Shown here piece by piece: positions 25,363 to 37,547 of a DNA stretch of 64,000 nt (position 1 is its first letter; every line of letters begins with the position of its first letter). Under the pieces are notes generated by a model, which ran no database searches, had not been told where the DNA came from, and worked only from the letters and a program-made list of their open reading frames with translations. Made by a program: the position numbers and the translations under genes. The DNA lies in contig JBNLDW010000002.1 in assembly GCA_050304615.1 (NCBI GenBank), positions 1,630-65,629 on the forward strand. The letters run 5' to 3'. This DNA comes from Sedimenticolaceae bacterium. Lineage in GTDB: Bacteria > Pseudomonadota > Gammaproteobacteria > Chromatiales > Chromatiaceae.

Positions 25363-26202
25363 CTATACAAATCGCATAGATAGATCGACTGCCGTCACGT
25401 TTTTTGTCAGGGCTCCCACCGAGATATCATCTACCCCGGTCTCGGCAATCTCCCTTACTCGTTGCAGTGAAACCCCGCCAGAGGCCTCCAGTCGCGCCCT
25501 GCCGCCATTTAATAGTACCGCCTCACGTAGTTGCTGGAGTGAGAAGTTATCCAATAAAATACGGCGTGCGCCCGCCTCTATCGCCTCCTCCATACCAGCC
25601 AGATCTTCGACCTCCACCTCGATCTCCAATTCTGGTGCATGCCGCATAGCCACCTCTACTGCCGCCTTGATAGAGCCGGCCGCCATAATGTGGTTCTCTT
25701 TGAGCAGGATGGCATCATATAGGCCGATGCGATGATTATGACAACCACCACAGGAAACCGCATACTTCTGCTGTAATCTGAGGCCAGATAGGGTCTTGCG
25801 AGTATCGAGAATACGTACCTTGGTACCCTCAACCGCCTTGGCATAGGCGCGTGCAGTGGTGGCCGTCCCGGAGAGTGTCTGCAGATAATTCAGGGCAGTT
25901 CGTTCGCCACTTAATAGCGCCCTGGTGTTACCATCTAGTTCGCAGATTACCTTGCCTGGCTCCACCTCTGCCCCATCCTGCACAAACCAGTTAATCTGAA
26001 TCGTGGGATCAAGCTGATGAAAGGTCTGATCAAACCAGACCTGTCCACAGATGACTGCCGCCTCCCGACACACCACCTGCACGGAAGATAGTTTATCTGC
26101 GGGAATCAGGATGGCAGTACGATCTCCTGGCCCAATATCCTCGGCCAGTGCCTGGCGCACCTGATCCTGGATTGTCTCTTTGCTCGGTAGTCTTGCTGCC
26201 AT
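25363..26202 (-). CDS. nadC: Nicotinate-nucleotide diphosphorylase (quinolinate phosphoribosyltransferase)
   Basis: Full-length NadC-like protein: ERTALN.LQ..SG.AT, DTRKT.PGLR...KYAV..GG..NHR.GL. Confidence 0.92.
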   Translation of the reverse strand: MAARLPSKETIQDQVRQALAEDIGPGDRTAILIPADKLSSVQVVCREAAVICGQVWFDQTFHQLDPTIQINWFVQDGAEVEPGKVICELDGNTRALLSGERTALNYLQTLSGTATTARAYAKAVEGTKVRILDTRKTLSGLRLQQKYAVSCGGCHNHRIGLYDAILLKENHIMAAGSIKAAVEVAMRHAPELEIEVEVEDLAGMEEAIEAGARRILLDNFSLQQLREAVLLNGGRARLEASGGVSLQRVREIAETGVDDISVGALTKNVTAVDLSMRFV

Positions 26203-26313: not shown

Positions 26314-28605
26314 CTATGCTTCTGCGTTCTGTAGCCCATCCGCGATAGAGGTTAGGGCCCGATCAAGCAGTGGTGTTTCCGCTCCGGCCAGCAGCACCAT
26401 TTTCCCGGTACGCATGGCATCAGCCAGCTTCTCCAGACATACTTCCAGAACTTTGATGCCCTTATTATTCACAAACAGGTGGTTGCCACTCACGCCACTC
26501 TTCCAGGCAAGTTTAATCCGTCTGCTGGTATCATTCTCTCCCTTCAACTCCAACCAGCTCCCCAGTGGTATCTCTTGCGCCTTGCGCAGGTAGATACTGG
26601 TATCGGCGATAGTTCCGGTTTTAATCTGATCACCCGCAGGTTTAATCTGATCTGCTGCAGGTTTTGCCTGTTGCGACCCGCTACTTGCAGTGATACCGGC
26701 TTTACTCTCCTCTTGCTTTGACTGCGTGGCAGCCAGTGTTTTCGGGTCGATCCCCGGTATGCTCTCACCACGTAGGCAGGCCATATGACAGGCCTGCAGC
26801 TCTTTAAACAGGCGTATCATTTTATGCTGGTCAAAGCTGATATTTGTAAGCTCTACGCGCAGCCCCTTGAGCAGTCCCGGTATAATCTGCAACAACTCCC
26901 TCCGCTCATCCAGACTCTTTTTAGGGGTGACACTCCACAGCAGCTGATCCAACATGGTTATTCTTTCTGTCCATTCCTCGCCCTCAACCCCTTGGCGCAA
27001 GGCGGTTAGCATTAGCACATCCTTCCATCCATGCTCTAGTAACTCAACTGCCGCCTTAGGAATGCCATCATACTGCTCAAACCGTTTTGCTATCTCATCG
27101 CCTACCTGCCGTTTGGCAAGTGCCAGCTGCTCTTTACCACGAGTGGCCTGGGTAGCACGCTCTTCAGCCAGGCTGGAGGTACGCTGCTCCGCTTCAAGAT
27201 ATTCCGCAAATTCTTCATTCAGCTCAGTGAACAGCTCGACGTCTTGATCAAACTCTAATAACACCCGGCTGACGATGGCATCAATCATACCGTACAGGCT
27301 CCCAGCCGACCGGTCACCATCATCTGACCAACCCAATGCGGCCTGGGCCAAGCTATTCAGCAGATGCCGTGCCGGATGGCCCTGGCGATAGAAAAACTCC
27401 TTATCAAGCAGTGCAACCTTTACCATTGGAATCTGCAATCTGGCTAGCAGCACCTTCATGGTATCCGGCAGGTTACGATCTTCCAGAATGAATTCGAACA
27501 ACATCGATATCACATCGATCATGTTCTCATCCGACCTCTCCTTGGAGGCAAAAGAGCCAACCGACTGATCAATATTCAGCTCTTGCTGCAGTAGTCCCCG
27601 CAGGTCCTGTACCCCTAACCCAGCCTCGGAGGAGAGATGATCTCCCTGCTGCAGGTTAGAGAGGGCTGCAACTATCTGCCCTGTATCCACAACTACGGCC
27701 TGATTCCCTGGGGAGACATAACTTCGACGCTGATTCAACAACCCCTGCAGGTTGGCAAAAAACTCCCGGTCTACCGCAACCGAATCGCCTGTCGCCAGTA
27801 CATCGTCACTATAATCAGCCTGTGTCGACGCCTGCGCCTGACCGCCTACCGCCGCACCAGAAGAACCACCAACGACAGGAGCGCCAGCATTAGGTTTGAC
27901 TTTAGGCGTCAATTTGGGCAAAACCCCAGCCTGTGCCAATACGTCATTGACACTGTTATAGAGCTTACCCAATCCAGCCATCACCTCTCTATCAAATAGC
28001 TTGTAGACCACCAGTTTTGCCGATAGCTCAAGCTCTAAAGGCTCCAGCGCTCGCTGGAATGACTCACATATCCTGACTGGATCCAGAGGATTATTTTTGC
28101 TATCGACCACCAGGCCGCGAGCCAATGCGCCGAATCTCTGCTCAATAGCGTAGAGTTCACGAGAATAGCGGTTCTCACTCTTGGCGGTCATGCTGGTTAT
28201 GGCCAGGGTATCTTCCAGTTCATCATCGGCAACCAGCAGAAGCTCCTCGCCCTCCTTGTGACCACCCTCAGCGGTTTCAGCATCTGGCTTGCCTGTCTTC
28301 CAGAACCGATCAAAGCCATGCAAAATCCGCCGTTGAAATCCCTCCTGCAGGTTCTCTTGCTCCCTGCGCAACTCACGCATTGCGTGGAAACAGGCTATCT
28401 GCAGATTGCCACTGTCCTTCTTGTTAGAGAGGTCAAACAGGACATCATCCAGCTTCTCAAACATCCCGCCCAGTAGACGCGGCAGGATCCAGGCCGTTAC
28501 CTTGCGGCAACTTTTTACTCCCTCATACTCTTCCTGTTTGAGATTGATATTACTGGCAAACCGCTGGTCGCCATCGAAGGGTAAAATATTGTCACGTTGT
28601 ACCAT
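26314..28605 (-). CDS. DUF1631 family protein
   Basis: 763 aa. The N-terminal ...FEKLDDVLFDLSNK...FHAMRELRREQE..GF pattern is typical of DUF1631. It sits between nadC and ampD, as I recall for pseudomonads. Confidence 0.7.
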   Translation of the reverse strand: MVQRDNILPFDGDQRFASNINLKQEEYEGVKSCRKVTAWILPRLLGGMFEKLDDVLFDLSNKKDSGNLQIACFHAMRELRREQENLQEGFQRRILHGFDRFWKTGKPDAETAEGGHKEGEELLLVADDELEDTLAITSMTAKSENRYSRELYAIEQRFGALARGLVVDSKNNPLDPVRICESFQRALEPLELELSAKLVVYKLFDREVMAGLGKLYNSVNDVLAQAGVLPKLTPKVKPNAGAPVVGGSSGAAVGGQAQASTQADYSDDVLATGDSVAVDREFFANLQGLLNQRRSYVSPGNQAVVVDTGQIVAALSNLQQGDHLSSEAGLGVQDLRGLLQQELNIDQSVGSFASKERSDENMIDVISMLFEFILEDRNLPDTMKVLLARLQIPMVKVALLDKEFFYRQGHPARHLLNSLAQAALGWSDDGDRSAGSLYGMIDAIVSRVLLEFDQDVELFTELNEEFAEYLEAEQRTSSLAEERATQATRGKEQLALAKRQVGDEIAKRFEQYDGIPKAAVELLEHGWKDVLMLTALRQGVEGEEWTERITMLDQLLWSVTPKKSLDERRELLQIIPGLLKGLRVELTNISFDQHKMIRLFKELQACHMACLRGESIPGIDPKTLAATQSKQEESKAGITASSGSQQAKPAADQIKPAGDQIKTGTIADTSIYLRKAQEIPLGSWLELKGENDTSRRIKLAWKSGVSGNHLFVNNKGIKVLEVCLEKLADAMRTGKMVLLAGAETPLLDRALTSIADGLQNAEA

Positions 28606-28917
28606 AACGCACCTATATGGGATTGCACCCCAAACTGCGTCCTTTTAGCTTGGAGAATGCTGGATATCGGTGTAGATCTTCCTGTATGGACTATATACGC
28701 TACACGGAGAATAGCTCGTGAAGTCAATCACACCACCTTATATTTATCTACCGCAAGCGCCTTTCAATAGTTAAAACCGTGACCCCCATCTCAGGGAATC
28801 TACTTCATATCGCAAATTCTCCGGCCAATACCATACCAAGGTCAATATTTTGTCCAACCTGCGAAAATCTCACATTTATACTGAATCTCGCAATCTGTTC
28901 ATGCTATGTTTTGAGTC

Positions 28918-29652
28918 GTGATAAAACTAGTTACGCATATGGGGCATTCGCTGCTGAAAAGCGCACGGGATCTACTCCCTATCATTGGAGTGATCGGCTT
29001 TTTTCAACTATTCGTGCTACAACAGCCAATACCTGATCTACTCAACCTGGCCACGGGTATCATGCTGGTAGTTATCGGCCTGACCCTCTTTATCTACGGC
29101 CTGAAGACCGGCCTCTTTCCTATTGGCGAATCAATGGCCTACGACTTTGCCAGTAAAGGGAGCCTGTCTTGGCTTTTAACCTTTGCCTTTGCCCTTGGAT
29201 TTGGCACCACCATTGCTGAACCGGCCCTGATCGCAGTGGCTGAAGAGGCGGCCACGATAGCTGCGGCTGGAGGTATGATCTTAGATTCGAAACAGGCTAT
29301 GACCGACTACGCCTCAGGCCTGCGTTTTACCGTGGCGCTATCGGTAGGACTGGCCATCATGATTGGTGTAGTGCGAATAATTAAGGGGTGGCCGATACAG
29401 TATCTGATTATCGGCGGATATATAGGCGTTGTCATAATGACCGCCTTCGCCCCACCCGAAATCATCGGCATCGCCTATGATTCCGGCGGTGTAACAACCT
29501 CAACCATCACCGTCCCCCTGGTTACCGCCCTCGGCGTTGGGCTAGCCACCAGTATCAAGGGCCTGAACCCGATGACCGATGGATTCGGACTTATTGCCTT
29601 TGCCTCACTGACCCCGATGATCTTTGTCATGGGCTATGGGATGCTGCTGTGA
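28918..29652 (+). CDS. DUF1538 family membrane protein (copy 1)
   Basis: Multi-TM protein with [12 protein letters not shown] and [17 protein letters not shown] motifs shared with the next gene. GTG start, or the ATG at 28939. Confidence 0.7.
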
Positions 29653-30434
29653 TATCCGGCATGCTCAACTTCCTCGATACCCTACTCAGCACCATGCGGG
29701 ATGTAATCCCGATTACCGCCATCATATTTGGCTTCCAGTTCTTTGTACTCCGCCGCCGGGTCGCCAATCTGCGCCAAATCGTAACCGGCTTTCTGCTGGT
29801 GCTACTGGGGATGGCCTTTTTCCTGCAGGGTCTGGAGCAGGCACTCTTTCCACTCGGCAGACTAATGGCCAGCCAGTTGACTGCGCCAGAGTTCCTTGGA
29901 GTACAGACTGGTTCAGATGTGCATCACTATCTCTGGCTCTACCTGTTTGCTGCTACTATCGGCTTTGCCACGACTATTGCTGAACCGGCCCTTATTGCAG
30001 TGGCAATCAAGGCCAACCAGGTGTCCGCCGGTGCTGTTGGCACCTGGGGCCTGCGCATTGCGGTAGCCTTAGGTGTGGCGTTTGGGGTCGCCCTTGGTTG
30101 TTATCGAATCATCAGCGGCACCCCGCTCCACTACTACATTATTGCCGGTTATATCATGGTTATAATCCAGACCATGTACTGCCCTAAAACCATTATCGCC
30201 CTGGCCTACGACTCTGGTGGTGTTACCACCTCTACAGTAACAGTCCCGCTGATAGCCGCACTTGGACTAGGACTCGCATCTAGTATTCCTGGACGTAATC
30301 CACTACTGGATGGGTTTGGCCTCATCGCCTTTGCCAGTCTGTTTCCAATTATCAGCGTTATGACCTATGCCCAACTCAGTGAGTGGCATGCCAACAGATC
30401 ACCCAAGGTTTCTCTAAATAACAGTGAGGATTAA
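29649..30434 (+). CDS. DUF1538 family membrane protein (copy 2)
   Basis: Paralogue of the preceding gene ([29 protein letters not shown]). 4-nt overlap. Confidence 0.7.
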
Positions 30435-30436
30435 CC

Positions 30437-30787
30437 ATGCACTTTAAACTCATTATTACCCTAGTAGAGGACAAGAAAACCAACCTTGTTCTGGAGGCCG
30501 CTCGGGAGGCCGGTGCAACCGGCTCCACCGTCATAAATCAGGCACGTGGAGAGGGGTTGGAGCAGCATAAAACATTCTTTGGTCTCAGCCTTGAGACCCA
30601 AAGAGACGCGGTCCTACTCCTGGTGGAAGAGCACCTGAGCCGCCATATCCTGGAGACCATTGCAGAGGTAGGGAGGTTTGATGAACAGCCCGACAGCGGT
30701 ATCGCCTTCCAGATAGATGTAGAGGACGCGGTCGGCATCAATCAGCAGATAGCACAGTTAACCCGTAAGGTGGAGGAAGAGATATGA
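30437..30787 (+). CDS. P-II-like signal transduction protein
   Basis: 116 aa. The beta-alpha-beta pattern K.I....V.....L.AAREAGATG.TV...RGEG is reminiscent of the GlnB/PII superfamily. Confidence 0.6.
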   Translation: MHFKLIITLVEDKKTNLVLEAAREAGATGSTVINQARGEGLEQHKTFFGLSLETQRDAVLLLVEEHLSRHILETIAEVGRFDEQPDSGIAFQIDVEDAVGINQQIAQLTRKVEEEI

Positions 30788-31185
30788 AAACCAAAAGCCC
30801 AACCCGTGTACGCGATGTCATGAAAACAGATTTTGACATGGTGGATGGCATGGCGACGGTGCAAGCAGCACTCGACACCATGATGCACATAGAGACCAAG
30901 TCACTGATAGTGAAGCGCCGTCACGATGACGACGAATACGGTATGGTAATGCTGTCAGACATCGCCAAACAGGTGCTGGCAGTAGACCGGGCACCAGATA
31001 GAGTCAACATCTACGAGATCATGTCCAAGCCGGTGATCACGATACACCCGGAGATGGACATCCGTTACTGCGCCCGTCTCTTTGCCCGCTTTGATCTATC
31101 ACGCGCACCGGTGGTTGAAAACCGCGAAGTGATCGGCATCATCAGCTTCACCGACATGGTAGCGAAGGGACTAAGGCAAAAATGA
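30784..31185 (+). CDS. CBS-domain pair protein
   Basis: 133 aa with two CBS motifs (VRDVM......V, ...IYEIMSKPVITI). 4-nt overlaps on both sides. Confidence 0.7.
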   Translation: MKTKSPTRVRDVMKTDFDMVDGMATVQAALDTMMHIETKSLIVKRRHDDDEYGMVMLSDIAKQVLAVDRAPDRVNIYEIMSKPVITIHPEMDIRYCARLFARFDLSRAPVVENREVIGIISFTDMVAKGLRQK

Positions 31186-31727
31186 GTTGCGACATGGATA
31201 TACTGCTCCCGGAGGCATCCCAGCATCACTCGCCGAACCAGGATGAGCGGCCACTCGGAGTGTCCATCAATCTGCTGGTGATCCACAACATCAGTCTGCC
31301 GCCGGGTGAATTTGGCGGCCCCTGGCTAGATGATCTTTTCTGCAATCGGTTAGATCCGGAGGCCCACCCCTACTTCCGCGAGATAGCTGGCATGGAGGTA
31401 TCCCCTCATCTGCTGATCCGGCGTGGTGGCGAATTGATTCAGTACGTACCCCTGCAACAGCGCGCCTGGCATGCCGGCACGTCCACATTCCAAGGGTGTG
31501 AACAGTGTAATGACTTCTCTATCGGGATTGAGCTGGAGGGCACTGACGACAGCCCCTACACCGAACAGCAATACCAGACCCTGGCTACTGCCACTCGCCA
31601 GATCATGGCCCAGTTCCCCGCGATAACAACCGACCGTATCAAGGGACACAGCGACATTGCGCCGCAACGCAAGAGCGATCCGGGACCGGCCTTTGACTGG
31701 GGGCATTTTCTTGAGTTATTGGGATAA
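31182..31727 (+). CDS. ampD: 1,6-anhydro-N-acetylmuramyl-L-alanine amidase
   Basis: LVIH.ISLPPGEFGG, AWHAG.S.F.G...CNDFSIGIELEG.D, GHSDIAP.RK.DPGP.FDW. Confidence 0.9.
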   Translation: MSCDMDILLPEASQHHSPNQDERPLGVSINLLVIHNISLPPGEFGGPWLDDLFCNRLDPEAHPYFREIAGMEVSPHLLIRRGGELIQYVPLQQRAWHAGTSTFQGCEQCNDFSIGIELEGTDDSPYTEQQYQTLATATRQIMAQFPAITTDRIKGHSDIAPQRKSDPGPAFDWGHFLELLG

Positions 31728-32265
31728 AGAGTTTCGTAGCCCTTAGCCCTTATCGCCCGCAGAGCGTTTTCCATTCTCAACCGTATCAGTAATTAATTTC
31801 ACAGCCTTATTAGTTTGAACACTTTTTTACCTCTGCGCATTGGCTGCGAGTCCCTTTTCTGCTCGCCTGTTTGGTAATTAGTTTCGTGGCCTGTTTGATT
31901 TCGGTAGCTAATTTCGTAGCCCTTAACCTGCTAAGGATTATTCTTGTTCCGAGCATCGCAGTTGTAAGTGGGGATAGCCCTTTAGGGGAGCGACAGTGAC
32001 TCGCAGCCGAGCATCGGTGCACATTAAGACAACAAAATGTTGAGGCCGCGAAACTGATTACCGATGTGGTTAAAGTACAAAAGAGCCAATATCCAACTAT
32101 GTAACAAACTGTATCAAACAACCCATGCTGACAACATATGTTACAAATCTGATCCATCCTGACACACCCAAGACACATTTGAAGCGTTAAATAAACCGGT
32201 CGGAAAAACAGCCGCGTCTCAGCTTATGGGACATGAAATAGATAAGTTCATAAGGGGAATTAATC

Positions 32266-32781
32266 GTGAAAATTAAACGTGAATGGGCTACTCCAATAAC
32301 TGCAGGTGCCTTTCTTCTTACAGCCGTTACAGGCGCGCTCATGTTCTTTCATCTGGATATGGGGATCAACAAGGTCGCTCACGAATGGTTAAGTTGGGTC
32401 CTACTGATTGGTGTTGCTTTGCATCTGGTACCCAACTTCAACAAACTCAAGCAATATCTATCAATGCGTAATGGACAATTAATGATAGGCGGGTTTGCGC
32501 TGTTGTTGATATTGAGCTTTGCTCCCATTGGAGGAGATAAAGGCGAGCAACCATTTGTGCAGCCGCTAAACGCCCTCTCCAATGCCCCATTGACTACCTT
32601 GGCGCTGGTCGCAGAAACCACTCCAGAGGAATTGCTTGAGCGTCTGTCCAATTCTGGCATCCCTGTTGAGTCAAAACAGCAGAGCGTAAGTGAACTGGCG
32701 GGCAGCGACTTTCGTAAACGGGTTCGTATTTTAAGCATTCTACTTACACAAGAGAGGAAAATAGCCCCAGTTCTTTTCTAA
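32266..32781 (+). CDS. DUF4405-like membrane protein
   Basis: 171 aa. The N-terminal TM pattern ...LLTAVTGALMFFHL......HEWLSWVLLIGVALHL resembles DUF4405. GTG start with aagggga upstream. Confidence 0.5.
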   Translation: MKIKREWATPITAGAFLLTAVTGALMFFHLDMGINKVAHEWLSWVLLIGVALHLVPNFNKLKQYLSMRNGQLMIGGFALLLILSFAPIGGDKGEQPFVQPLNALSNAPLTTLALVAETTPEELLERLSNSGIPVESKQQSVSELAGSDFRKRVRILSILLTQERKIAPVLF

Positions 32782-32866
32782 GGTCCCCAGCGGCGGCGGC
32801 AAGGGCAACCATAGGAAATCACCCCTTGCCGCCAATCTGAGCTGATCCGAATTCAAGTTGGATTAG

Positions 32867-32882
32867 TGTAACTATTGTTACA
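32867..32882. promoter_or_regulatory. Perfect palindrome TGTAA-N6-TTACA (CRP/FNR-family geometry)
   Basis: tgtaactattgttaca is centred ~70 nt upstream of the ATG at 32945. Confidence 0.4.
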
Positions 32883-32944
32883 GAACTCCCCCGTCTCAAT
32901 TTGTAACCTTGCATCGTGAATCCACTATTACTAAGGAGATTACG

Positions 32945-33250
32945 ATGCAAGCGATGAAGTTTTTTATTGATACCCATGATGTTTCCAACGAGAGTTTTCC
33001 TGCCGGCTTAACCCCTGAGCAGTTCGAGGGCTTTTTCGCTAAGTTTGAACAGGCCTGCTATGCGGAAAATGTGGTGCTGCTACGGGTCCATGTCGGTTAC
33101 GAAGAAGGGCGCGCCTTCTGTTTTACCATGGCACCTGATGCCGATGCGGTGAAACGTGCGCATGTAAATGTAGGACTGCCTTTCGACAGCATTACAGAAG
33201 TTACTACCGCAACGCCTGGCGATACATTTTTCCGGCGCGCTGACGCCTAA
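32945..33250 (+). CDS. DUF4242 (SCO4226-like) small protein
   Basis: MKFFIDTHDV...GLT.EQ......K........V.....V....G.AFC...AP...AV..AH...GL....I.EV pattern. aaggag RBS at 32933. Confidence 0.55.
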   Translation: MQAMKFFIDTHDVSNESFPAGLTPEQFEGFFAKFEQACYAENVVLLRVHVGYEEGRAFCFTMAPDADAVKRAHVNVGLPFDSITEVTTATPGDTFFRRADA

Positions 33251-33260
33251 GTTTCACCGC

Positions 33261-33297
33261 CGCCGCGGTGTCGGCACGCACCGCGGCGCAATCTTTT
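33261..33297 (+). terminator. GC-rich hairpin plus T run between DUF4242 and the peroxidase gene (terminator or attenuator)
   Basis: 10-bp perfect stem cgccgcggtg/caccgcggcg, 8-nt loop, then caatctttt. Confidence 0.5.
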
Positions 33298-33307
33298 GGA
33301 GTAGCCT

Positions 33308-34660
33308 ATGAATCTCGGCATATTCGATATCATTGTTATTGGCTTGATCGCATTGATGATTGGATCACTCGTTATGGTATCAATAGTCTACATGGAGTTG
33401 GGGCCAGCTCAGCAGCTGGCTAAACAGCAACGAAAGCTGTTGGCTGTTGCCTTGTGCTCAGGCATCCTGGCCTTTGCCATCAAGATTGTAATCATCATTA
33501 CAATCGCCAATTTCCCCCAGTACGTCATTAATCCATTCTTGAAGACTCCAGAGATTCCTGAGTACTTGCATGTCAAAGCTAAGCCCGGCCCAGCGCGTTA
33601 TGTTTGGATAGAGTTGCCAGAGCAAAATAATACAGCTACGCCTGAACCGATTGTGTCGCGTGCGCGCTATATCTGGCAGGCGCTGCCAGAACAGGCGCCC
33701 TCCCCCGCAAATAATAGGTCTACACCACAGAAGGTTGCGCTTGGCGAGCAGCTGTTTTTTGATCAGAGATTATCACGCGATGGCACCCTCTCCTGTTCTT
33801 CCTGTCATGACCTGTATGCAAAAGCTGGCGGTGATGGCCGCTCTACCGCACAGGGGATTGACCAACAGATAGGTGGCCGCAATGTGCCTACAGTTTGGAA
33901 TACCGGTTTTCAGACCGAGTTCTTCTGGGATGGACGAGCACCTTCGCTGGAAGAACAGGCCAAGGGCCCGTTGATGAACCCAATTGAGATGGGTATGCCA
34001 TCACCGGAAGAGGTAGAAAACAGGGTAGTACAGCAAGAGCGTTACCAGCAAGCCTTCGCAGAAGCCTTCGGTGCAGAAACCCCAATCACCATTGACCGTA
34101 TCGCAGAGGCAATCGCGGCCTACGAACGCACCCTGATCACACCAGATACCCCCTATGATCGTTTTGTGCGCGGTGATACCGATGCCCTCACTCCGGCCCA
34201 GGTCCGTGGCATGAATCTATTTCAATCGTTTGGCTGTGTCACCTGCCATCATGGTCCGAACTTTAGTGCGGCCAGTGTCTTCGATAGCAGTATGCCGCGG
34301 CGTATCTTTCCATCCAACCCGATACCTCAAGAGCAGCAATACAATTTACTGCTCGAGCACAATGCCAGCACTAGCTCAAACCGTGGCGTGTGGCGTGTGC
34401 CTTCTTTGCGCAACGTGGCGCTCACTGGTCCCTGGCTACATAACGGTGCTGTAGAAAAGCTGGATGAGGTGGTGCGTATCATGGCCGCTGGGCAACTGGG
34501 ACGTGCCGGACACTATCTATTGTGGTCTGATAAAGATGACGTACTGAGCGAACATAATCAACCCAAACCCAGTGACCAGCAGGTGGCGGATATAGTTGCC
34601 TTTCTAAACGCCTTAAGCAGTGACAGGCTAGTAGCAAAAAAATCTGTCAACCAGCATTAA
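33308..34660 (+). CDS. Di-haem cytochrome c peroxidase/MauG family protein with N-terminal membrane anchor
   Basis: Two haem motifs, CSSCH and CVTCH, in a CCP-like context (VPTVWN..F....FWDGRA.SLEEQA.GP..NP.EM). About 90-aa N-terminal extension with 2 TM segments. Confidence 0.85.
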   Translation: MNLGIFDIIVIGLIALMIGSLVMVSIVYMELGPAQQLAKQQRKLLAVALCSGILAFAIKIVIIITIANFPQYVINPFLKTPEIPEYLHVKAKPGPARYVWIELPEQNNTATPEPIVSRARYIWQALPEQAPSPANNRSTPQKVALGEQLFFDQRLSRDGTLSCSSCHDLYAKAGGDGRSTAQGIDQQIGGRNVPTVWNTGFQTEFFWDGRAPSLEEQAKGPLMNPIEMGMPSPEEVENRVVQQERYQQAFAEAFGAETPITIDRIAEAIAAYERTLITPDTPYDRFVRGDTDALTPAQVRGMNLFQSFGCVTCHHGPNFSAASVFDSSMPRRIFPSNPIPQEQQYNLLLEHNASTSSNRGVWRVPSLRNVALTGPWLHNGAVEKLDEVVRIMAAGQLGRAGHYLLWSDKDDVLSEHNQPKPSDQQVADIVAFLNALSSDRLVAKKSVNQH

Positions 34661-34740
34661 AGCCCTGGCTAGGGCTAATGCTTTGCCCAGGGGTAGAGAT
34701 ATGTGATACTTGCCTAATATCGGTCAGTGGTATTAGGCAA

Positions 34741-35427
34741 ATGGCGTCTACTGAGTCAAGCAGCTTTCAAGCGGTAACTGATTTCCTGCACCTCTCGCCT
34801 GAGGGGGTGCAACTACTTGAACGCAAGGTACAGCGCGCCGCATTCACGCAACCGACTGCGGTGATCCACAAGGGACAACCTGTGTCCGGCGCCTACCTTG
34901 TGTTGCGTGGACAGTTGCGTGTCTTCACCTACACCCCACAGGGCACCGAGGCTACTCTCTATTTCATTCGCCCAGGCGAGACCTGCGTTCTGGCGCTCAA
35001 TTGCCTGTTCAACGACCTACGCTATCCGGCCTGGGTGGAGGCATCTGGCGACACCGATGTAGTAGTGATCCCCGGTTCGCTTTACCGTCGCCTGTTCGAG
35101 CGAGAGAATGCAGTACAGGACCTGACCGTCTCTGCCCTCTCCACCCTTGTGTTCCGCCTGATGGATGAACTGGAGCAGATTCACTCCTGCAATCTGGATC
35201 AACGCCTAGCTAATTTTCTTCTCAATAATGCATCAGACGATGGCGTGGTGGCGATGACACAACAAACACTCGCAGGGCATCTTGGCACCACACGAGAGGT
35301 TATCGCCAGACTGATGCAAGGTTTCAGCGCGCAGGGCATGGTCTCGACCGGGAGGGGAACCATCTCAATATTGGATGCAGGGCAGTTGTCGACCATAGCT
35401 GCGCCACAGAGTTCAGACCTATTCTGA
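34741..35427 (+). CDS. Crp/Fnr family transcriptional regulator
   Basis: cNMP-binding-like beta-roll plus a C-terminal HTH (Q.LAGHLGTTREVIARLMQGF). Start trimmed to the ATG at 34741. Confidence 0.8.
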   Translation: MASTESSSFQAVTDFLHLSPEGVQLLERKVQRAAFTQPTAVIHKGQPVSGAYLVLRGQLRVFTYTPQGTEATLYFIRPGETCVLALNCLFNDLRYPAWVEASGDTDVVVIPGSLYRRLFERENAVQDLTVSALSTLVFRLMDELEQIHSCNLDQRLANFLLNNASDDGVVAMTQQTLAGHLGTTREVIARLMQGFSAQGMVSTGRGTISILDAGQLSTIAAPQSSDLF

Positions 35428-35977: not shown

Positions 35978-36012
35978 GAATCACCTCCAAACAATAGTGG
36001 GCAGATCTCACC

Positions 36013-36285
36013 CTATTTGACCCCTTCCCACAAAGAGTGGTTGTCGGCCCATCTTAAACTCAACCAATACCACGCCGTCATAGCAACCATCATCGCAAAC
36101 CAACTCCAGCCATCAATAAGAAACACCGCTTTGACCCACTCGAGACCGGGAAATAGTGCAGGCCATGGAACGCAATAAACGGTAAATGCTATGCAGCCCC
36201 ACACTAGCCACAACGCGGCCTGCCTATTATCGATACTTGAGAATGCAAGGAAGACCCACAAAGGTGTATTTTCGTTTTTATCCAT
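36013..36285 (-). CDS. Hypothetical Trp-rich small membrane protein
   Basis: 90-aa ORF with 2-3 hydrophobic segments. Confidence 0.4.
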   Translation of the reverse strand: MDKNENTPLWVFLAFSSIDNRQAALWLVWGCIAFTVYCVPWPALFPGLEWVKAVFLIDGWSWFAMMVAMTAWYWLSLRWADNHSLWEGVK

Positions 36286-36406
36286 TACTATATGCCTCCA
36301 TTCTACCCATCACTAAATAGAGATCAAAACAAGCGGACAGCACTTGAAGCTCAATTGCATTAACCCCAACCAGATAGATCTTGCTGGTTATTAAAATCCA
36401 CTAGAA

Positions 36407-36985
36407 CTAACAAATCTGGTTTAATTTTGCATACTGGAGAAGCATGATCGTTTTTCCATCTTTAATCTCTCCCGAGGCAATCATGGCGTAGGCTTCATTA
36501 AAATCGACCTCTAATACCTCAATATCTTCATGCTCATGCTCTAAACCACCTCCGGCAGAAACCCTCATTTCATCTGTATACTCAGCCACAAACAGGCTAA
36601 TTACTTCTGTAACTGCGCCTGGCGACATGTAGGCTTCAAATATTTTTCTGACTTTATCTATCTTGTAGCCCGTCTCCTCTTCTACCTCCTTTTTAATACA
36701 CTCTTCTGGACTGTCTCCCTCCAGCAATCCGGCACATGCCTCGACCATCATGCCATCAGTGTTACCATTCACAAACGTAGGCATCCTGAATTGACGAGTC
36801 AAAATAACACTGCCCTTACGGCTATTATAAAGAAGTATCGCCGCCCCATTACCACGGTCGTAGACCTCACGTTGTTGCCGCTCCCACTCGCCATCAGACC
36901 TTTGATAATCAAATGAATATTTATTTAGCGTGTACCAACTATCCGACAACACCGTTTTTTTAATATTTTTTACTTTGATCTTCAT
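36407..36985 (-). CDS. nudK: GDP-mannose pyrophosphatase (Nudix hydrolase)
   Basis: Collinear with E. coli NudK as I remember it: [24 protein letters not shown], Nudix box [34 protein letters not shown]. Start trimmed to 36985. Confidence 0.8.
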
Positions 36986-37082
36986 ACATTCTCTTTGTAC
37001 GTGTAACGCCAAGCTAATTGGCACTCGCATGCACGCCTAAGCAAGATATGAGCATTGCTGAACTTCTGGTTAAGCTTCTCTT

Positions 37083-37547
37083 TCATTCCCTACGTGATTT
37101 CCCAGAAACATCACTAACAACCATCTTAAACGCACGAGTTTTATCGGTTAGTGCATCTATATACCTCGCGCCGCTTTCAATAAACTTAGATGAATATTTC
37201 TCTAACATTCCTTCAAGTGCTGCCTGCTTTTCGTCACTAAACACTTCGATGGCTTTGCCTGAAACAATGGTACTTTCATACTTCGTTCCGAACTTTGATG
37301 GCAACACCTCGGTTTTACCAACAACACAAAAAGAGACGGATCTATTCTTTTCTAGATTATCTATTTTCCTCCCCTCCATTGCGCAGTGAAAGTAGATATG
37401 GCCATCCATGACACAGAAACTTAATGGGACACCATAAGGCAGCGCTTCCTGCGAGGCAGTTGAAAGAACACCGTATTCAGCGCTACCCAAGATAGATAGT
37501 GCTTCATCTTCCGGTATCTCTCTGTCTTTTCTCCTAAGCTCTTGCAT
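37083..37547 (-). CDS. Pyridoxamine 5'-phosphate oxidase family (NimA-like) flavoprotein
   Basis: MQELRRKDREI.....L.....G.LS......PYGVPLSF....G.IYFH.A..G.K pattern. Confidence 0.7.
   Translation of the reverse strand: MQELRRKDREIPEDEALSILGSAEYGVLSTASQEALPYGVPLSFCVMDGHIYFHCAMEGRKIDNLEKNRSVSFCVVGKTEVLPSKFGTKYESTIVSGKAIEVFSDEKQAALEGMLEKYSSKFIESGARYIDALTDKTRAFKMVVSDVSGKSRRE

Follow-up and report, generated by a model that had tools for sequence, protein, structure and literature searches.

What is the function of two membrane proteins of the DUF1538 family that are encoded in one run with a PII-like protein, a CBS-pair protein and the amidase AmpD? This question is raised by positions 28918-31727 of the window, by which we mean the whole 64-kb stretch of DNA analysed here, belonging to a Sedimenticolaceae genome bin from metagenomes. 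On the plus strand the run carries, in this order, two DUF1538 genes (here called umpA-like and umpB-like), a P-II-family gene, a CBS-pair gene and ampD; the first four are referred to below as the cassette. The answer that we favour, and hold to be fairly probable, is that the cassette encodes a cation/proton antiporter of the UmpAB type gated by PII-like and CBS nucleotide sensors, with ampD as a passenger.

The DUF1538, PII and CBS genes and their conservation

Direct reading of the sequence showed that the five genes are contiguous open reading frames (ORFs) joined end to end. The umpA-like gene (28939-29652, +) and the umpB-like gene (29649-30434, +) overlap by 4 nt (GTGA, 29649-29652), and a 2-nt gap (30435-30436) leads to the gene of the PII-like protein (30437-30787, +; 116 aa, PF00543). 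The latter shares 4 nt (ATGA, 30784-30787) with the gene of the stand-alone CBS-pair protein (30784-31185, +; 133 aa, two PF00571 matches), which in turn overlaps ampD (31182-31727, +) by 4 nt (ATGA, 31182-31185). Good Shine-Dalgarno-like purine runs were found ahead of the PII-like and CBS starts. The other three starts were ambiguous: on identical contigs gene callers used ATG 28939 (237 aa) and not GTG 28918 (244 aa) for the umpA-like gene, GTG 29649 (261 aa) or ATG 29661 (257 aa) for the umpB-like gene, and ATG 31182 or ATG 31194 for ampD. These alternatives turn two overlaps into 8-nt gaps at most and leave the contiguity unaffected. An earlier note on this DNA had described five joined plus-strand genes in a nadC-DUF1631-ampD neighbourhood, and the ORFs, the junctions and the Pfam and NCBIfam matches confirmed this description.

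The conservation of the cassette was examined in a survey of the 80 loci closest to the Sedimenticolaceae query, one genome per species, whose UmpA proteins were 69-81% identical to that of the window. The window proteins were mapped onto these loci, and gaps and overlaps were extrapolated from tblastn coordinates. Enough DNA was available after umpA at 76 loci. The order UmpA-UmpB-PII-CBS was complete at 72 of them (one has umpB in a scaffold gap), and the PII gene stood beside the transporter genes at 74 of the 76. The CBS gene alone was missing from two of them, in Thiomicrorhabdus and Thiosulfatimonas bins, and two, in Thiomargarita and Parabeggiatoa bins, had umpA alone. The PII and CBS genes overlapped in 66 of 72 loci, and the gap between UmpA and UmpB was 1-30 nt in 68 of 74. 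Since the same four-gene order and the same PII-CBS overlap recur so often, the gene arrangement is far beyond chance. The carriers comprised many gammaproteobacterial families together with Gallionellaceae, Hydrogenophilaceae, Accumulibacter and Nitrospirota bins. The earlier note had set such a survey of DUF1538 neighbourhoods as the test of whether DUF1538, PII and CBS genes occur together, and their co-occurrence proved to be conserved; it is visible in routine annotation.

Several loci of the survey stood out. In the Thiomargarita and Parabeggiatoa bins (L016:6107-6808 and L018:5316-6014) the lone umpA lies beside nadC with no umpB, PII or CBS gene after it, and in L018 a 1236-aa Reg_prop/peptidase-C13 protein comes next; these may be decayed cassettes or rearrangements. 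On two contigs labelled as archaeal, L057 ('Halobacteria archaeon') and L073 ('Bathyarchaeota archaeon'), the cassette is complete and its UmpA shares 76-77% identity with that of the window; these are likely mis-binned bacterial contigs rather than archaeal genes.

The link between DUF1538 and PII extends far beyond these relatives. About 2,750 clusters at 50% identity match the DUF1538 protein, and distant members (~30% identity) were found as DUF1538-DUF1538 fusions in Paraclostridium, Vescimonas and Peptoclostridium and as two genes in Methylocystis and Chelativorans. In all annotated distant loci examined, a gene annotated 'P-II family nitrogen regulator' overlaps the DUF1538 end, and no CBS gene was found at these five. 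In Campylobacterota the association is closer still, with DUF1538, DUF1538 and PII joined in one chain of about 655 aa (659 aa in the representative). This fusion makes up more than 120 protein clusters, some of them on complete chromosomes, and a natural fusion of this kind argues strongly that the transporter is what the PII domain acts on. The proposal in the earlier note that the PII-like and CBS proteins are dedicated partners of the membrane pair was thus upheld by the conserved order, the overlaps and the fusions.

Two variants of this association were also observed. The P-II genes after the clostridial DUF1538 fusions (L085:4710-5378) encode about 222 aa, twice the usual length, of which Pfam recognises the C-terminal half only; a second, degenerate PII domain may make up the N-terminal half. 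In another protein, P0123 (724 aa), two DUF1538 domains are followed by a cytidylate-kinase-like/AAA_17-18 nucleotide-binding domain where the others have PII, which suggests that different nucleotide-binding modules can serve the DUF1538 transporter.

The same data bear on the idea that the PII-like and CBS proteins serve signalling in general, acting on enzymes, transcription factors or other targets elsewhere in the cell, and are simply co-expressed with the transporter. Canonical PII proteins do have many targets, and the CBS protein is dispensable for the transporter, being absent at the distant loci and at the two Thiomicrorhabdus-type loci. However, PII is fused to the transporter in the clusters described above and adjacent to it in every clade examined, and the PII-CBS overlap is near-universal within the survey clade. 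We give this explanation little credence.

The DUF1538 pair and its cargo

Both membrane proteins cover the DUF1538 profile almost from end to end. PF07556 matched the umpA-like protein with 224 bits over profile positions 1-211 of 211, and the umpB-like protein with 232 bits over positions 1-210 of 211. Their best NCBIfam matches were NF041627 (UmpA) for the first, at 364.2 bits against an equivalog cut-off of 490, and NF041628 (UmpB) for the second, at 343.1 bits against 500; neither cut-off was reached. The window proteins thus match UmpA and UmpB in the right order.

UmpA and UmpB are the products of two adjacent DUF1538 genes cloned from Halomonas zhaodongensis (Meng et al. 2017, PMC5484666). 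In that study only umpA and umpB expressed together rescued E. coli KNabc on NaCl, on LiCl and at alkaline pH, the two proteins co-immunoprecipitated as a heterodimer, and everted vesicles showed pH-dependent Na+, Li+ and K+/H+ antiport (PMC5484666). The membrane system had been called functionally uncharacterised in the earlier note, a description that did not hold, given this heterodimeric antiporter and the NCBIfam UmpA and UmpB models that match the window proteins. The view that the two DUF1538 proteins are a paralogous transporter pair, in turn, gained support from the homology to UmpAB and from the 48% identity between the two proteins in alignment.

The likeness to UmpAB goes further than the family match. 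In both cases two adjacent paralogous DUF1538 genes touch or overlap at their ends, A is the shorter subunit, and the A/B identity is about 48%. The alignment of the window proteins showed that the umpB-like protein is longer, with a hydrophilic C-terminal tail, and that A and B each carry a loop that the other lacks (9 residues inserted in A, 11 in B), as in UmpAB. The conserved Glu, Asp and Arg residues and the Gly/Phe-rich motifs are also shared. The differences are that the window scores fall to 364 versus 490 and 343 versus 500, that UmpAB was assayed alone with no PII or CBS partner described, and that transport and heterodimer formation were shown for the Halomonas proteins.

One Glu and two Asp that A and B homologues have in common are conserved in the window pair, as in UmpAB. 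In the homologue alignment E94 (in TIAEP) and D214 (in DGFG) were invariant and D181 was nearly invariant. The AlphaFold2 (AF2) model of this protein is all-helical, with a predicted local distance difference test score (pLDDT) of 74. In it E94 is placed where a break separates two short helices, D181 in a short helix ending at a second break, and D214 at the beginning of the last long helix. As far as a model of moderate quality allows, this placement would resemble the ion-binding sites of many secondary transporters. A sequence search of DUF1538 against solved structures gave no match, and Foldseek with the umpA-like model gave nothing better than E 0.62 and a template modelling (TM) score of 0.25.

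The neighbours of the transporter at other loci point in the same direction as the UmpAB experiment. In two Campylobacterota genomes a K+ channel gene (Ion_trans_2 plus TrkA_N/C) and a TrkA_N/C gene precede the fusion gene on the same strand by 20-65 nt, and at four gammaproteobacterial loci a gene for a CPA2 Na_H_Exchanger with TrkA_N/C adjoins the cassette, co-directional at two and convergent at two. These K+ channel, TrkA and CPA2 neighbours fit monovalent-cation homeostasis, not carbon or nitrogen uptake. In L088:2662-6971 and L090:2834-6959 a K+ channel gene with RCK domains, a TrkA_N/C gene and the fusion gene lie on one strand, and this Campylobacterota group is possibly a cation-homeostasis operon.

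The PII-like and CBS proteins and a proposed mechanism

The PII-like protein belongs to a family that is highly conserved yet far from canonical PII. PF00543 matched it with 44.8 bits against a cut-off of 25, residues 4-102 aligning with profile positions 2-99 of 102, and more than 8000 homologues were found. A single-sequence search against solved structures in the Protein Data Bank (PDB) gave no match, and the family profile aligned over its full length with archaeal GlnB at E 0.03. BLASTP against E. coli GlnB gave no alignment, a result of little weight.

Its sequence was compared with canonical GlnB and GlnK, in which we take Tyr51 of the T-loop to be the modification site, Gln39 and Lys58 to bind 2-oxoglutarate, and the Lys of the B-loop G-D-G-K-I-F to bind phosphate. 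The PII-like protein keeps the Arg at the base of the T-loop. Its T-loop is 3-4 residues shorter and has no Tyr, a Gly stands at the position of Gln39, and an Ile at that of the B-loop Lys. The B-loop of the family reads G-(T/D)-G-I-A-F, with both Gly residues kept; that of the window reads D-S-G-I-A-F, with Asp for the first Gly. Because the T-loop Tyr, Gln39 and the B-loop Lys are missing, the protein is not a GlnB or a GlnK.

The fold was examined through the Campylobacterota fusion, whose PII domain is 26% identical to the window protein. The AF2 model of the fusion had a pLDDT of 75.5 and a predicted TM-score (pTM) of 0.65. Foldseek matched its PII domain to GlnB/GlnK, SbtB and CPII with probability 1.00 and TM scores of 0.55-0.79 on the target, the matches including the SbtA-SbtB complex 7egk. 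With the whole fusion model, the top 50 matches were solely to PII proteins.

The CBS protein matched PF00571 in two stretches with 66.5 bits. Its motifs GMVMLSD and GIISFTD, read in the translation, fit the ribose-phosphate pattern G-h-h-(S/T)-x-x-D. The best solved relative was the CBS module of cyanobacterial CBS-CP12 (5nmu, E 7e-24), and weak NCBIfam matches were found to the CBS regions of ClcB and MgtE. CBS modules regulate transporters such as MgtE, ClC, OpuA/OpuC and CorC, and they also occur in CBS-CP12 and in the cyclic di-AMP receptors CbpB/DarB. Like those of regulated transporters, the Bateman module of the window has intact ribose-phosphate motifs and is tied to an ion transporter; unlike them, it stands alone as a protein of 133 aa, encoded by a gene coupled to that of the PII-like protein. 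Judged by their motifs, nucleotide binding by both the PII-like and the CBS protein is plausible.

In the mechanism that we propose, the two DUF1538 subunits would form a heterodimer exchanging Na+, Li+ and K+ for H+ across the inner membrane, and would be regulated by the PII-like and CBS proteins, both cytoplasmic and translated from the same mRNA as the subunits. UmpAB works without partners in E. coli, which argues that the PII-like and CBS proteins are regulators and not part of the transport path. The PII-like protein is probably a trimer that would bind adenine nucleotides and dock on the cytoplasmic face of the transporter, its T-loop plugging or opening that side in the manner of GlnK on AmtB and of SbtB on SbtA. 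The CBS protein may add a second input, from an adenosyl ligand or from ionic strength, acting on the PII-like protein or on the transporter. The ampD gene, last in the run, would have no part in transport, the cassette lying between the old nadC-side promoter region and ampD(E). We infer along these lines the substrate in this organism, the docking, the ligands, the direction of regulation and the co-transcription of ampD.

Such gating has known counterparts. GlnK on AmtB and SbtB on SbtA are cases in which PII gates a co-encoded transporter (10.1101/2023.08.10.552651). The likeness is that a PII gene adjoins or is fused to the transporter gene in every clade examined and that the PII domain of the fusion matches GlnK and SbtB in fold; the differences are the unrelated DUF1538 transporter, the likely cation/H+ cargo, the added CBS sensor, and in the window PII-like protein a shorter T-loop without Tyr51 and the loss of the B-loop Lys and the 2-oxoglutarate Gln. 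A second parallel is given by the PII-NG proteins, whose genes accompany those of CzcABC-type cation/proton efflux pumps (Sant'Anna et al. 2009, as cited in PMC7726332). There too a divergent PII-family protein shares an operon with a proton/cation antiporter, although the pump is a tripartite RND system and not a DUF1538 heterodimer.

Several points weigh against the reading of the cassette as a PII- and CBS-gated antiporter with ampD as a passenger. Since both subunits score under the equivalog cut-offs, the window pair are UmpAB homologues without guaranteed identical function. The antiporter assignment comes from one heterologous study, in which the clone ended at umpB and PII and CBS are unmentioned (PMC5484666). 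The AF2 models are moderately confident (pLDDT 74-75), and no solved fold is like DUF1538. Three residues of canonical PII, the T-loop Tyr, the B-loop Lys and the Gln for 2-oxoglutarate, are missing from the PII-like protein, and the tight CBS-ampD junction, kept across several families, is not required by chance placement. Finally, the PII-transporter pairs that are well understood all move carbon or nitrogen species and not Na+ or K+ (10.1101/2023.08.10.552651).

This last point, together with the scores below the UmpA and UmpB cut-offs, speaks for a different cargo. The DUF1538 pair would then move another small solute in vivo (for example bicarbonate/inorganic carbon or ammonium), with the PII-like protein as a one-way valve like SbtB and GlnK and the antiport in E. 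coli as a side activity. In line with this, the fusion's PII domain is as similar to SbtB and CPII as to GlnK, and many survey carriers are autotrophs, sulfur-oxidising or other (Sedimenticola, Thiodiazotropha, Thiomargarita, Thiomicrorhabdus, Gallionellaceae); the apparent excess of autotrophs is biased, because the survey took the loci closest to a Sedimenticolaceae query. However, cation/H+ antiport is what the sole experiment on the family showed. Heterotrophs (Thalassotalea, Litorilituus, Motiliproteus) carry the cassette as well, DUF1538 is present in gut and soil Clostridia, and the genes that recur beside the transporter encode K+ channels, TrkA and CPA2 antiporters, with no carboxysome, Rubisco or nitrogen genes among them. 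We regard another solute as unlikely, and a regulated antiporter of the UmpAB type is kept as the preferred reading.

The place of ampD and the meaning of the cassette

The last gene of the run is a genuine ampD by its matches, Amidase_2 in Pfam with 108 bits and NF008758 with 270.7 bits, above the equivalog cut-off of 143. The product, a cytoplasmic 1,6-anhydro-N-acetylmuramyl-L-alanine amidase, is 61% identical to E. coli AmpD over 164 residues. On the other side of the cassette lie, on the minus strand, a DUF1631 gene (26314-28605, PF07793, 665 bits) and nadC, for quinolinate phosphoribosyltransferase (25363-26202, QRPTase_N and QRPTase_C matches).

In the earlier note the cassette looked inserted in a nadC-DUF1631-ampD neighbourhood, and the comparison with E. 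coli and with the relatives agreed. In E. coli nadC and ampD-ampE are divergent neighbours, and the layout of the relatives is nadC-(DUF1631)-cassette-ampD-ampE. In the survey ampE followed ampD in 20 loci, nadC or DUF1631 plus nadC stood upstream in most ampD-linked loci, and only Sedimenticolaceae, Thiodiazotropha and allied loci had DUF1631 placed between nadC and the cassette. The window shares with E. coli the divergent nadC and ampD and differs in having four genes (five with DUF1631) between them and no ampE: a tblastn search of the whole 64-kb window gave no ampE match better than E 0.3. A recent horizontal insertion of the cassette was considered and rejected, since its G+C (0.52-0.55) is the same as that of the flanks and the layout is common to several families.

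The weight that the earlier note had placed on the coupling to ampD found no such backing. Among the 69 loci in which at least 1 kb after CBS could be assessed, ampD followed the cassette in 28 and was absent there in 41, and the genes downstream in the loci without ampD fell into 38 unrelated clusters. Where ampD followed CBS on the same strand (29 loci), the gap was at most 35 nt in 24, 337-390 nt in four and 3.3 kb in one; about 8 of the 24 tight junctions in relatives were 4-nt overlaps. As the cassette sits inside an older nadC/ampDE junction, the AmpD link is probably positional.

These numbers were also weighed for the possibility that AmpD belongs functionally to the system and shares a pathway with the cassette, for instance with the two sensors tuning peptidoglycan recycling or the transporter moving a recycling-related solute. 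The 4-nt overlap shared with relatives and the short gap in most linked loci speak for it, as does the persistence of the linkage in rearranged form: in L062 ampD lies upstream of umpA, and in L041 and L051 nadC-ampD lies 2-3 kb away. So does a relative in Ca. Thiodiazotropha (L050), for which contigs crossed the CBS-ampD junction in 4 of 4 runs examined. These runs comprised two metatranscriptomic libraries and two listed as probable RNA, and the contigs included one of 351 nt from a gill metatranscriptome; contigs from RNA runs can contain DNA or merge neighbouring transcripts and are no proof of a single RNA. No RNA run contained the window itself. Against it stand the majority of assessable loci without ampD nearby, whose downstream genes are mutually unrelated, the four loci with 337-390 nt between CBS and ampD, and the distant DUF1538-PII loci examined, none of which has ampD. 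A single old insertion explains the pattern, because the nadC/ampDE adjacency predates the cassette and ampE still follows ampD in those 20 loci. A working role for AmpD is very improbable in our judgement, and the gene is probably a positional passenger of the antiporter cassette, and probably co-transcribed with it.

The promoter of the cassette is presumed to lie in the divergent intergenic region between DUF1631 and the umpA-like gene (28606-28938). The plus strand of this region gave no sigma-70-like site, and the counts of promoter and terminator sites were not above those of shuffles. A promoter-like site on the plus strand inside the CBS gene (31115-31142) was set aside as unsupported. 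The Rfam scan of 28400-32400 at E<=1 gave no match, so the leader holds no known riboswitch, for example of the Na+ or Li+ class.

The same intergenic region contains a CRP-type palindrome, GTGAAGTCAATCACA, at 28718-28732. It is the sole exact GTGA-N6-TCACA in the window, where 0.6 are expected by chance, so that it is weak evidence alone. The motif aligned in six of nine Sedimenticolaceae upstream regions and was missing in L043, the one relative that has no DUF1631 gene; the palindrome may go with DUF1631 and not with the cassette. Positions 34678-35427 of the window carry a Crp/Fnr-family gene.

About 610 nt after ampD hold repeats, and no gene was called there. A 17-nt direct repeat, TAAnnAGTTTCGTAGCC, occurs in three copies starting at 31725, 31875 and 31905 (31725-31928), and a 14-mer, TTTCGTAGCCCTTA, occurs twice within the same stretch. 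A 122-aa ORF on the minus strand (31810-32178) had no Pfam or NCBIfam match and was uncalled on identical contigs, and it is probably not a gene. When 31728-32340 was compared with L035:10830-11726, it seemed that the lineage of the window lost ampE where the repeats now lie. Beyond them, 32266-35427 carries co-directional genes conserved on identical contigs, for a DUF4405/cytochrome-b561-like membrane protein, an SCO4226-like nickel-binding protein, a MauG/MbnH-type di-haem peroxidase and the Crp/Fnr-family regulator. The stretch 36000-37500 is unlike the rest of the region, with a low G+C of 0.43-0.44 and a GC skew of about -0.3, and holds small minus-strand ORFs including NUDIX and PNPOx-like genes (calls on L001).

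No DUF1538-PII or DUF1538-CBS system was found described in the literature, which was searched for DUF1538, PF07556, UmpAB, PII-NG and PII-like proteins with transporters, antiporters or CBS. Already known are one characterised member of the transporter family and the principle that PII controls a co-encoded transporter. New are the pairing of PII and CBS regulators with DUF1538 and, with it, a new transporter family as a proposed PII target, a likely new cargo class and the added CBS sensor. For annotation, the DUF1538 genes would be named UmpAB-like, the PII and CBS genes their partners, and ampD would be placed outside the system.

PII proteins are among the most widespread signal integrators, and few of their direct transporter targets are understood. 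We put at about an even chance the broader proposal that DUF1538 is, after Amt and SbtA, the third broad transporter class under dedicated PII control and the first with Na+/K+ and H+ as cargo, the CBS protein being added in many Gammaproteobacteria and some Betaproteobacteria to give a gate with two sensors, through which adenylate energy charge or a second messenger would be linked to pH and cation homeostasis. If this is true, the DUF1538-DUF1538-PII chains of Campylobacterota would be ready material for a new transporter fold together with its PII gate, and the annotation 'nitrogen regulatory protein P-II' would be corrected on thousands of proteins. A family of about 2,750 clusters without a solved structure would gain both a function and a mode of regulation, and PII control would reach from nitrogen and carbon uptake to cation/proton homeostasis.

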